From: Mobula birostris
Taxonomy: Eukaryota
Direction: 5' to 3'
NCBI RefSeq assembly: GCF_030028105.1
Contig: NC_092370.1
Coordinates: forward strand, 52,853,894-52,917,893
DNA: 64,000 bases
The notes under the pieces are model-generated. The model was given only the letters and a program-made list of their open reading frames with translations. It was not told the origin of the DNA and ran no database searches. The position numbers and the translations under genes were made by a program. Below are positions 25,901 to 53,498 of the stretch, piece by piece. Numbering within the stretch: position 1 is the stretch's first letter; the number at the start of each line of letters is the position of its first letter.

Positions 25901-28900
25901 GTGTTCTCTCAACTTCCCTTTCCTGAAGTCCACCTATCAATTCCTTGGTCTTACTGACACTGAGTGCAAGATTGTTGTTGTGACACCAATCAACCAGCTG
26001 ATCTTTATCACTCCATTTGTCTCCCTGTCACCATCTGAAATTCTGCCAGCGATAGCTGTGTCATCGGCTGCCTAGCCACATAGTCATGGGTGTAGGGAGT
26101 AAAGCACTCTACAGAGGCTGGAAATATTGAGCAACACACAAAAAGCTGCTAGCGGACTCAACAAATCAGGTAGCATTAATGGAGGGCTACGAAAAGTCAA
26201 CGGTTCAGGCCAAAACTCATCAGAACTCAATTGTCTCGGCTACATGTTAAAATTTCTAATATAGAATTATCTTACTAGACACAACACCCACAATGAAAAC
26301 AATATTCTTTTAACACATTACCTGTAGTAAGAATAGATATATCTACAATTCCAGTCCTTGGATCAGTTGCAGACTGTTTCAAAGCTTCACGGTGAAGACG
26401 TTTTGCCTCTTCTACATCTATGTTTTCAACCTTTTCGGAGAAGCGCACCTTAGCGTAAGCTTCTGCCAGACGTATCAATGACTCCAGCTGTCGAGGATAT
26501 GCCGATACCATGCCCCTTCCACTGCCAATTTTCCTCATGTCTACATATGCCTTTACCACAAGGGAGAACACAAAAATTGATTAAGGTGTGGCATTGTGAC
26601 TGGGGAAAATATTACATCAAAAAGAGTTCACACCTCAATAAGCGCTTGACTGGCCTCTTCACTCAGCCTAGGATGGACATAAGTACGGGCATAGGCAATA
26701 TAGTCCCTGAGCACTGCCATATCCAAGTATTCTTCTTCCATTTCTTCTTCACTTTGATAATAAAGTGAAACCAAATGGTGGGCAAGACGTCGATCATAAG
26801 CCTCGTCTTGTGGATCCAACATAAGGAAGATCAAATCAAACCTATAAAAATAATGAACAAATTTGTATTACTTGTGCAGAATAAGATGTTATTATTCTAG
26901 GAGTTTTGGAAACATTCGAGATAAAGATACGTCATATCTTGACTGAGCGAGTTTGTGAATAGATTACATTACCTAGATAAGAGTGTATGTGGAAGCTGGA
27001 TGTTTTCGATAGTTGTCTTTTTGGGGTTCCACTGGGATTCCACTGGGTTTGCAGCTGCCAGGATAGATGTTCGGGCATTCAGCTGACAGATTATTCCGGC
27101 CTAAAATACATAACATTATGGGCTTCATTATTCAAACAGCTATCAAATTTTACCTCAAAAGTTCAAATAAATAGATAGATAGATATACTTTATTAATTCT
27201 GAGGAAATTTATTAATCCCAAGGCAAATAAAGCACAAATGCAGTTAAATTAAAAGATATGATTGTTTCTTTAATCATTTTGGAACTAAAGGACATTTACT
27301 ATCATTTTTGGTTCAGAGAAAGAAATAATAGGACTTATGACAGCAACATCTGATTTGTGCATTTATAGTGTTTCTAAATGTTTTACGTATTGAAAAAATG
27401 CTGGACTGTCAGGTCTTCTTTAGAAGCTAACTCTGTTCATATATTTTCTATCATTTCTCTTCTCGGATCCTCAATTCCTTTATCTTTAAGTAATTTAACT
27501 GATAATTTTGTAGTTAAACACACAGAGGATTTGGGTACAATTTAGAAAATATTTTGGTTTATTGAGTGTTTCCACTTTCCAGTCCCATTTTTTCTAAATT
27601 TTTTTTTAAACCTTCTATGTCTGATGCAGTTTATAAAGAGTGGAATAGATTGGGTACTAAACGTTTTCAGGATTTGTTTGTTGGAGATGGTCTCTCTTCA
27701 TTTGAACAACTGTCAGTTAAGTATAGCCTACCGAGAACGCATTTTTTCCCCCGATATTTTCAAATTAGAGACTTTTTGCATTCTCAAATACATACATTTC
27801 CTATTAAGTCCAGATAAAAATTTACTTGATATAATTTTTAATTTGAAACCCTTCCATAATGCATCTATATCTAATATTTATGGTATGTTTAAAAACGCAA
27901 ACATGAGGAAATCTGCAGATGCTGGAAATTCAAGCAACACACACAAAATGCTGGTGGAACGCAGCAGGCCAGGCGGCATCTATAGGAAGAGGGACAGTCG
28001 ACGTTTCGGGCCAAGACCCTTTGTCAGGACTGACGAAGGGTCTCGGACCGAAACGTCGACTGTACCTCTTCCTATAGAGGCTGCCTGATTTATGGTATGT
28101 TGTTGGGAATGAGAAATATTCCTCTAGATAAAAATTAAAAAATTTTTGGGAACAAGATTTACAGATGTCAATTTCTGAGGACACTTGGAATGATATTTTT
28201 GAATTGGTTAATACATCATCATTATGTGCCCATCATTCCCTTCTACAATTTAAACTGGTTCATAGAGCCCATATGTCTAAAGATAAGCTGTCTCGTTTTT
28301 ATTCTGATATATCTCCCTATTGTGACAGATGTAATAATGGAGAAGCTTCACTAATACATATGTTTTGGACTTGTCCGAGTCTTGAAAAATATTGGAAGGA
28401 AGTATTTCAAACCTTTTCAGTGTTTTTTTTAAAAAAGTAAATTTTAAACCTAATCCCTTGACTGCCTTATCTGGTATTGTTGGAGGAAATGACATTATTT
28501 TGGAGACACATGATCTGCATATTTTGGCCTTTATTTCTCTTATAGCCAGGAAGGCATTGTTGCTAAAGTGGAAGGATGCCACTCCACCTACTCGTACTCA
28601 TTGGCTAAATGATGTTATGTCTTGCTTAAATTTAGAGATTTGCTGTTCAATTTCTGAACCTAGACAAGATTTTTTAACATTTTGGAGACCTTTTTTGAAT
28701 TATTTTCAAAATCTTTTATTTGCTATTAAGCACAGATGTTGGCTAATAATATGTTATACTATATGTTAAGGATTTTTTCCTTTATTTTTTAACCAAACAG
28801 CTGTTTTTTTTCCTGGTAGTGCGTTTAGATTTTTTGTATAATGAAATCTCTTTTCAATATTATATTTGAATTAAATGCATATGGATATGGGGTAATTACA

Positions 28901-51348: not shown

Positions 51349-53498
51349 TTTACTCTTCTGGTGTACTGTTAGCCCTTAAAATTTATGGGCCTGAGAACAT
51401 CTGATGCAGAGTTACATTTTGATTGAGTTTTATCCAAATCATGCGCAGTATCTCCCTCTGCAGCCTCCTGCTGGTCTAATCTCATTGAAGAAAAGGCAAA
51501 GTGATCAACTCCAGAATTCTCCATTCTCAGGCCTGACCACAGCATGATGTTTCAATATGAAATGGACTTCATGCCAAAAATGTAATTGGCCACATGTGTG
51601 TCTCAGCCACAAATTTGCTCTTCACCTCATGCACGATCCTTCAGGGTTTTATTTTCCTTAGCCTAAATTGTATATCACAAATTACTGTCTTTTTCTCTTT
51701 ATCTCAATCTTTGATCTTTCCATTATTCTTGACTATTGAATTATCCTTGTCTGCCAAAATGGTCGACAATGTTTTACTCTCTTTCTTGTGCACTTCAGTC
51801 ACTTCAGAACTGCCTGAAGTAATTGTCACTACAAAAAAAACTTAAATCCTCCAAATTTTAAAATATTATCTCATTTTTTGTCCAGATACTTCAATGATAT
51901 GATTTTCATCTTTACAAATATGGCTTGTTTGAATTTTACTGGTCTACCTTTCACTACTTTTGCAAAACAGTACTGTCATGATGATTGCAGGGATTCCAAG
52001 AGTTGAGATACACATGTACTTGGGGGGACAGGGGTTGATTAGGAATAAGCAGTATGGCTTCAAGCAATCATGGCTCAAGAATTTAATTGATTCCCTTAAA
52101 GAATTAGCCAAGATGTTTAATGAGGGCAGGGCAGTAGACGTAATATTTCAGTAAAACCTTTGATAATAAGACGGTAAGACATAGGAGCGGAATTAGGCTG
52201 ATTTATTAGCCCTCAGCACCGTTCTCCTGACTTCTCCCTGTAACCTTACAGAGCCTTACTAATCAAGAACCTATCAATCTCCACTTTAAATATACCCAAT
52301 GACTCAGTTGCCGCAGCTGTCTGTGGCAACAAATTCCACAGATTCACCACCGTCTGGCCAGTTTCTCTTCATCTATATTCTAAAGGGGCGTCCTTGTATT
52401 TTGAGGTCGTGCTTGCTGATCCTGTAGGAAACATCCTCTCCATGTCAGTTCTATCTCTGTTTTTCAATATTTAATAGATTTCAATGAGATTCTCACTCAT
52501 GCTCCAAAACTCCAGCAAGTACAGCCCAGAGCCATCAAACGCTCTTCATACATTAACCCTTTCATTCCTGGGGTCAACTTACTTTTCCTCACATACTCCA
52601 CAGCTTCCCTTTATCTCCGCACTAAAGGGTAATTTGTAGTAACCATTTGGCCACCAGCTCATCTTTGTAAGAGGAAATTGGAGCACCCCTCAAAAGCCAA
52701 TGAGATTGTGCGAGAATATGTGAATTCCCCAGAATCAGCCCTCATGCACAGATTGTACGATGTCGTAGGTTGCTATAGAAAATTAGATCGCGTGGGATCC
52801 AGGGAGACCAAGTTACTTGTGCATGCAATTGGCTTGACGAGAGTAGAGAATGAAGATGAAAAAATAACTTTTTAGACAGGAGGCTCATGTTTGTGGTGTA
52901 CTTCAGGTACTGTTGCAAGGCCCATAGTAATTTGTCATCAATATCAACAATGTAGGTGAAGCCACAAAAACACGATTAGTAAGCGTATAGATGCCACTAA
53001 AAATAGATCTGTTAGGAGACAATGAAGAAGATTATAAAGAATTATATTGGTAATTAGCTGGGTACCTGGATTGAGGAATGACAGATGAAGTTCAGTTCAG
53101 ATGAGTGTGAGCTATTTGCATTTTAGGAAGACTGATCAGGGTGGGACTTTCACAATAAATGGTAGGCGTTTGGGATCGTTGTTGAAGGGAGGGACCTAGG
53201 AGTATAAATATATGGTTCTGTGAAAGTGTGTCACAGTTACCCCGGGTAGTGGTGAAGCATTTTGGCTTGCTGGCTTTCATCAGTCGGGGCATTCGGATCT
53301 GAGGGCTCAATTTTGCTTTGGAATGCTGTTGTTCGCTTCCAGTGTTTGCATGATTTGTATTTTCTTTCGTTCTCTTGCTGTGCTGGTCTTTTTATTTTTT
53401 TTTTCTTTAATTGGGTTCTTTCGGATTTCTTGCATTGTGGCTACCTGTGAGCAAGCAAATCTCAAGGTTGCATCATTTATACATTCTTTGACAATAAA

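Follow-up and report, generated by a model that had tools for sequence, protein, structure and literature searches.

Penelope insertions in Mobula birostris tend to end at helix I of the hammerhead motif, probably at the start of a capped RNA

Inverted Penelope insertions in a 64,000-nucleotide stretch of the Mobula birostris genome (assembly GCF_030028105.1, contig NC_092370.1, positions 52,853,894 to 52,917,893 of the forward strand; hereafter the window) were compared with copies of the same family sampled across the genome. The 5' ends of the copies are concentrated at the hammerhead motif of the element, above all at the first bases of helix I. With moderate confidence, we interpret the insertions as dead Penelope copies whose 5' ends cluster at helix I because a capped RNA likely starts there, and in which two complementary DNAs (cDNAs) were joined head to head. 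As the cause of the junction enrichment, an RNA 5' end seems to us a better candidate than the hammerhead fold, which we hold to be unlikely, or splicing, which is less likely still.

Positions in the element are counted from the first C of CUGANGA (position 0). Helix I pairs -4..-1 with +28..+31, helix II pairs +8..+10 with +17..+19, and cleavage is predicted after +27. The genome was sampled in 164 stretches of 10 kb, placed at round coordinates on 26 large contigs (1.64 Mb), and four subfamily profiles were built from 44 long sampled copies (24 of the young subfamily Y and 10, 6 and 4 of older ones). Arms were called at a score of 25 with a 3' end at +40 or beyond, which gave 283 arms, or 281 after removal of two at stretch edges; the 71 young-subfamily arms of at least 85% identity are referred to as young. 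In the young subfamily the upstream reference is reliable. Two sets of 30 best-match loci, in which long young copies are over-represented, do not enter the counts; they were used as references and as a small hold-out. The pairing counts for 48 inverted pairs include the four window cases. The density of 173 arms/Mb (283 in 1.64 Mb) extrapolates to about 0.7 million arms in the 4.0 Gb genome.

Of the ends of the young arms, 25 lie within -4..+31 (2065 nt at risk) and 21 within -350..-5 (8896 nt), a rate ratio of 5.1 (p = 8e-8); the junctions are therefore not evenly spread. The ratio is 6.2 for the 41 tailed arms (one per insertion), 4.0 for the 30 tail-less arms, and 3.3 for the 36 unpaired arms. 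The original prediction, made from the window alone, had supposed that junctions are enriched at the motif genome-wide and had named an even spread as the outcome that would speak against it; the enrichment was recovered and the even spread was not. Going upstream, the young end rate per 100 nt at risk rises from 0.21 (+32..+60) and 0.31 (+11..+31) to 1.85 (+1..+10) and 4.8 (-4..0), and then drops to 0.68 (-12..-5) and about 0.2 (-41 to -350). When all 281 arms are counted in 4-nt bins, 14 ends lie at -8..-5, 49 at -4..-1, 7 at +32..+35, and 15, 9, 19, 6, 7, 10, 3 and 2 in the successive bins from 0 to +31. Positions -4 and -3, the first bases of helix I, alone hold 40 of the 281 ends and 8 of the 25 young motif ends (p = 5e-6). 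The same peak appears in unpaired arms (20 vs. 27; 133 arms). A strict target site duplication (TSD) is present in 16 of the 106 unpaired arms whose ends lie at or after -60, and nine of these 16 begin at -5..-2, including one with a short inverted piece and one old, doubtful call; the TSD finder, similar to that used for the window, made no false call on 300 mismatched flanks. The cleavage site itself is nearly free of ends, with 3 of 281 5' ends at +27..+29, in agreement with the earlier remark that the junctions do not lie at the GUC cleavage site.

The window insertions from which the study departs are listed below, with arms of the pseudo long terminal repeat (pLTR) described as tailed or tail-less.

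27876-27889 and 28088-28101, no strand: TSD of insertion 1, 14 bp, exact
27890..28031, minus strand: tailed pLTR arm of insertion 1, 3' end at +132, stopping exactly at the -4 hot spot; core with a G8 change
28030..28087, plus strand: tail-less arm of insertion 1, spanning 0 to +57
36067-36078 and 36218-36229, no strand: TSD of insertion 2, 12 bp with 1 mismatch
36079..36141, minus strand: tailed arm of insertion 2, old subfamily, extending only to +65
36141..36217, plus strand: tail-less arm of insertion 2, from +10 (helix II/loop) to +89
45024-45033 and 45228-45237, no strand: TSD of insertion 3, 10 bp, exact
45034..45143, minus strand: tailed arm of insertion 3, old subfamily, to about +20
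45142..45227, plus strand: tail-less arm of insertion 3, from about +13..+15 (45142-45145) to +97
50171-50184 and 51349-51362, no strand: TSD of insertion 4, 14 bp, exact
50185..50695, minus strand: tailed arm of insertion 4, +132 to about -376, hammerhead motif at 50320-50285
50693..51348, plus strand: tail-less arm of insertion 4, beginning in the endonuclease region and ending at +47, with a hammerhead motif at 51297-51332
50693..50992, plus strand: C-terminal GIY-YIG coding part of the Penelope open reading frame (ORF), Pfam PF01541, E 1.5e-5, above the curated cut-off
26106..26227, minus strand: fifth arm, old subfamily, with its start at -4 and a G just before it; no TSD found

All four predicted insertions proved to be real and TSD-flanked, and each has the predicted layout, a minus-strand arm with the element 3' end followed by a plus-strand arm; the sense arms of the three short ones do start within the hammerhead. 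The junction of insertion 4 (about 50693-50695) lies within the endonuclease region. Two points of the original prediction needed correction: the short copies belong to different subfamilies (insertion 1 young, insertions 2 and 3 old), and the fifth arm had been missed. Insertion 1 fits the peak: as read from the sequence, its plus arm runs from 0 (28030), its minus arm reaches -4 (28031), and the two overlap by 2 nt. The fifth arm likewise starts at -4. Individually, the window insertions are ordinary dead Penelope copies. One more old-subfamily arm (14849-15009, minus strand) lacks most of the hammerhead and adjoins a copy of the dispersed repeat family D4.

The element is an endonuclease-positive (EN+) Penelope-like one because GIY-YIG is encoded in the plus arm of insertion 4 and because a longer genomic copy (L204) encodes RVT_1 (E 1.5e-5) followed by GIY-YIG (E 5e-4), both below curated cut-offs. 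A reverse transcriptase (RT) thus shares one ORF with a C-terminal GIY-YIG, a hammerhead-bearing pLTR overlaps or precedes the ORF start, and an inverted 5'-truncated copy with a one-sided tail and a TSD is seen, with 50 inverted pairs. Clustering of the sequence behind 180 tailed ends gave no common ORF start; one emerged later in spacers. At two loci (L032 and L135) the pLTR continues into common ORF-like sequence; a piece at L116 homologous to it matches a ray protein that runs on into the ORF region upstream of RT, the sole protein match to the front part of the ORF being from a ray. The joint between pLTR end and ORF-front sequence occurs in contigs of 4/4 sequencing runs, presumed to be RNA. 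These joints place the hammerhead ahead of the coding unit too, an arrangement shared with the anole element (PMC11167929). At the same two loci (L135:5508-5915, L032:3569-3928) the pLTR with its ORF-front piece runs straight into a second pLTR, which starts at -4 or -3; it looks as though a cDNA had jumped from the 5' end of one RNA to another RNA.

An Rfam scan gave no hammerhead family at E<=1, and the hammerhead was recognised by its core and helices. The motif has the CUGANGA and GAAA boxes and the GUC triplet of a minimal hammerhead, together with helix I, a helix II with G10.1-C11.1, a bulged base and a palindromic helix III. Across 131 arms the core agrees with the consensus at 83-93% (CUGA/GA), 76-98% (GAAA) and 73-92% (GUC), lowest at CpG-type sites. 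The helix pairs are kept in 70-90% of these arms; among the common pair types, no compensatory changes were found in the 131 arms, only one-sided ones. In the young subfamily, the sequence just upstream of helix I is by eye complementary to the CUGACGA core (-20..+15), and windows covering -20..+15 come close to the hammerhead in folding energy (-10.9 vs. -11.9 kcal/mol); judged from sequence, this stretch could keep the ribozyme off in RNAs that start upstream.

RT enters the fold from its 3' side, and a stall is thus expected near +32. The peak lies at the far, 5' edge of the fold, after the passage of RT, and the stall proposed in the original prediction is therefore not supported; the peak also occurs in uninverted TSD-flanked copies and is accompanied by an excess of G described below. 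In a wider form of this explanation, which we consider unlikely, the hammerhead ends or redirects RT, either by a pause at the structure or by snap-back of the cDNA on its copied helix I followed by a template switch. Snap-back would likewise end a cDNA near -4/-5. Among 124 36-nt windows in the young profile, stability is highest at the motif; ends also form secondary peaks at the arms of helix II (19 at +8..+11 and 10 at +20..+23), and at 4 of 44 inverted junctions the arms overlap in helix register (1 in helix I, 3 in helix II). Yet the entry side has no peak (+32..+36: 7/281), the helix I snap-back form is seen at only one of the 44 junctions (L033), and the G excess is not predicted. A window copy of the hammerhead folds no better than shuffles (z = -0.32), and stronger upstream hairpins of the O1 profile hold 0-1 ends of 7 at risk, in few arms. 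The suggestion that the fold fixes the junctions thus holds in part: at some joints the fold probably plays a part by providing microhomology close to an RNA end, rather than as a stall.

The 3' ends form two clusters (n = 264), with 110 at +84..+105 and 132 at +115..+132, and in 42 of the 48 inverted pairs a long 3' end is matched with a short one (cut at +113). The arm that reaches further upstream is the tail-less one in 24 pairs and the tailed one in 19, the two being equal in 5. A lone fold-back that always starts from the same arm cannot account for this variation. Both arms end in or near the motif together in 30/50 pairs (odds ratio 16.5, p = 1e-4). For rotifer Penelopes it has been proposed, from junction palindromes, that one cDNA or antisense RNA self-primes at a local palindrome and copies itself (PMC3846280). 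Many of the present short insertions are indeed near-perfect palindromes. We nevertheless regard self-priming as quite improbable here in view of the arm lengths, of the second arms of window insertions 2 and 4, which hold sequence absent from the first, and of centres that would need 2-nt loops (insertion 1). A mixed model is compatible with the data.

The short palindromes had also been suggested to be a non-autonomous family resembling retrozymes or miniature inverted-repeat transposable elements (MITEs); in this case they would derive from master elements, or their ends from ribozyme cleavage. The high density of short copies and the recurrence of one junction (window 28030 and L044) would suit such a family, and animal retrozymes have been proposed to derive from pLTRs (bioRxiv 10.64898/2026.07.22.740005). 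The end combinations, however, are distinct in 50/50 inverted pairs, so there is no master MITE or retrozyme, and the check for junctions common to short copies gave a negative answer. The one recurring junction has its tail on opposite arms, palindrome lengths are continuous (134-253 nt in 28/30), and copies alike in junction, ends and length, as in a MITE, were not seen. Head-to-tail tandem hammerhead units, as in retrozymes, were absent as well (0/4 same-strand joins in 1.64 Mb), and none of 8 short 3' ends lies at the cleavage site (+27), where 5' ends are also rare. This explanation is largely refuted, and we rate it as very improbable.

Some joints are more complex. At three loci (L110:1041-1376, L017:1505-2043, L144:6584-6952), 100-210 nt of non-element DNA lie between head-to-head arms, and at L017 a second, inverted copy of the spacer is found at a distance of about 600 nt. 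At three others (L107:4983-5206, L162:2-178, L019:1273-1655), short pieces of element sequence, copied from a template, are inserted at the junctions, which suggests that the template was switched repeatedly while the ends were being joined.

The base that precedes the ends gives a further indication of their origin. When sites with a consensus G before the junction are set aside, a G precedes 22/40 ends at -4/-3 vs. 29/135 elsewhere (Fisher p = 8e-5; region bootstrap of the difference 0.16-0.51). In the hold-out loci, 3/3 ends at -4/-3 are preceded by G, and in the old subfamilies the excess is 19/30 vs. 20/94. Decay of A to G at -4 is seen in only 5/114. An untemplated upstream G in cDNA is a mark of a capped start (PMC9245221) and was read as such in one clone of Zorro3, a long interspersed nuclear element (PMC3510499); a passage in PMC13000458 describes non-templated G/T without linking them to a cap. 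In the literature, little or nothing was found on cap-derived G in retrotransposons. All four subfamily profiles have YYAGTCC at -4 and an A/T peak 25-28 nt upstream in a C-rich tract. The initiator consensus is YYANWYY, and the upstream sequence suits an initiator with a TATA-like element, as far as sequence can indicate. D. virilis Penelope has an internal promoter, with an intron 46 nt after the start (PMC2377424).

The AG at -4/-3 may also be read as a splice acceptor, the hot spot then being an RNA end or joint made by splicing or recapping, as with the Drosophila Penelope intron. In all four profiles a polypyrimidine tract and AG stand directly before helix I, and adenines are found as far upstream as a branch point would be. 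In D. virilis, the 5' end of helix I is where the intron stops (PMC4209133). The bases ahead of the hot spot show a leaning towards (A/C)AG, with A or C in 28/40 at -3 and A in 17/40 at -2, partly in templated arms. However, sense element sequence that could be exon 1 is found within 45 nt upstream in 0/63 arms starting at -8..-1, several arms adjoin the TSD directly, the AG is retained in half of the ends, and young ends stay at -4..-2 despite an earlier AG at -8/-7 (8 vs. 2). We therefore consider splicing improbable as the source of the hot spot.

With an RNA 5' end as the preferred cause, the insertions could arise as follows. A staggered cut by the endonuclease would leave the TSDs of 10-17 bp that are observed. 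RT would then start inside the RNA at about +95 and about +130, one site for each target strand, as suggested by the two clusters of 3' ends and their pairing. For an anole element, extension on both strands and two RT start sites have been reported in vitro (PMC11167929). A start in the 5' pLTR, just before the ORF, would let the cDNA run off at -4/-3 once 100-135 nt have been copied, frequently with a C added opposite the cap, in line with the observed pile-up and G excess. A start in the 3' pLTR would carry the cDNA on into the 3' untranslated region (UTR) and the ORF; ends upstream of the motif do occur, at a rate that is low and even, and insertion 4 is an example. In a final step, the ends of both cDNAs, or of one cDNA and the target, may be trimmed and joined by 1-5 nt of microhomology, part of it supplied by helices I and II, which would scatter junctions over 0..+25. 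The ribozyme would be mostly uncut in the templates that are copied.

Several observations weigh against this explanation. In young tail-less arms, the peak at -4/-3 falls short of significance (1 vs. 8, p = 0.32), strict TSDs are present in only 16 of the 106 unpaired arms mentioned above, and two methods place the ends of old copies several nt apart. The young subfamily lacks the G excess (3/10 vs. 9/41, p = 0.43), which is also not significant in paired arms (7/14 vs. 12/47, p = 0.08). Some of the Gs are templated by the target or by the partner arm (L077, L061; L057, L136); a cap-derived C could favour such joints, without this proving a cap. Read from sequence, the region upstream of the peak suits a branch point, polypyrimidine tract and AG acceptor equally well, and the position of the D. 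virilis intron agrees with this. Since stability in the young profile is highest at the hammerhead, the fold and the RNA end are not fully separable. The microhomology counts are raw observed numbers, and walking to the 5' end recovered no full-length element (0/6 stretches).

The origin of Penelope inverted repeats and the role of the hammerhead have been called unresolved (PMC8557442, PMC11167929). The end map offers predictions at the level of single bases, namely that the capped start lies at -4/-3, that each insertion is made from two cDNAs and that the templates are uncut. A further consequence is that the short palindromes should be annotated as Penelope stubs rather than as MITEs or retrozymes. 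More tentatively, and with some doubt, the transcript may start on the first nucleotide of helix I from a promoter in the 3' UTR of an upstream tandem copy. The ribozyme would then be a switch that removes its own capped first 32 nt, and the need for tandem copies would be a promoter requirement. If the start on helix I is true, the hundreds of thousands of stubs would amount to a fossil library of the element of the kind produced by cap analysis of gene expression (CAGE).

Three other features of the window were noted. An inverted repeat with 76-nt arms (62481-62732) and a 63-nt hairpin with a sub-threshold Rfam microRNA match (45499-45561) are unrelated to the Penelope family, and a direct repeat of about 290 nt (55650-55940 and 59736-60027) has 86-92% identity between copies 4.1 kb apart.

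Complex insertions of EN+ Penelope-like elements have been described as an inverted 5'-truncated copy with a one-sided tail of 30-40 bp and a TSD (PMC8557442, PMC3846280). The present insertions resemble them in the order of RT and C-terminal GIY-YIG, the head-to-head arms, the tail on one arm, the TSD, the junction palindromes and the occasional captured DNA. In these sources the palindromes are explained by self-priming, whereas the arm lengths found here favour two separately primed cDNAs.

Another close parallel is Poseidon of Anolis carolinensis (PAc; PMC11167929), in which the tail is defined by two RT start sites inside the RNA, both strands of the target are extended, and a hammerhead stands at the front of the ORF unit. 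Uncleaved RNA is its main template, and no reads end at the cleavage site in the data presented there. Its ORF starts inside the hammerhead, unlike the present element, where ORF-like sequence follows the +132 end. The motif itself is of the kind known as minimal hammerheads of metazoan pLTRs, with a type I core, a bulged base before helix II, G10.1-C11.1 and a palindromic minimal helix III; there, too, most copies are solitary and truncated, and pairs on opposite strands 100-700 bp apart have been described (PMC4209133). The same source proposed cleavage and circular templates, while ends at the cleavage site are not enriched in the present sample. With non-LTR retrozymes the copies share a short, non-coding form, a type I hammerhead and a relation to pLTRs (bioRxiv 10.64898/2026.07.22.740005; PMC7229834). 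Retrozyme units stand head to tail in tandem, whereas the present arms are head to head, each with unique ends.

The inverted copy, the tail, the TSD and the hammerhead are thus already described (PMC8557442, PMC3846280, PMC4209133), and Fig. S2 of PMC11167929 maps genomic insertion ends, which may bear on the novelty of the present end map. In a search of literature titles and abstracts that left most subscription papers outside its reach, neither a base-level map of Penelope 5' ends nor a capped start at the hammerhead was found. In L1 twin priming, both target strands prime and the cDNAs join by microhomology. To our knowledge, L1 inversions do not duplicate the region involved; in the present insertions, by contrast, both arms cover the same pLTR.

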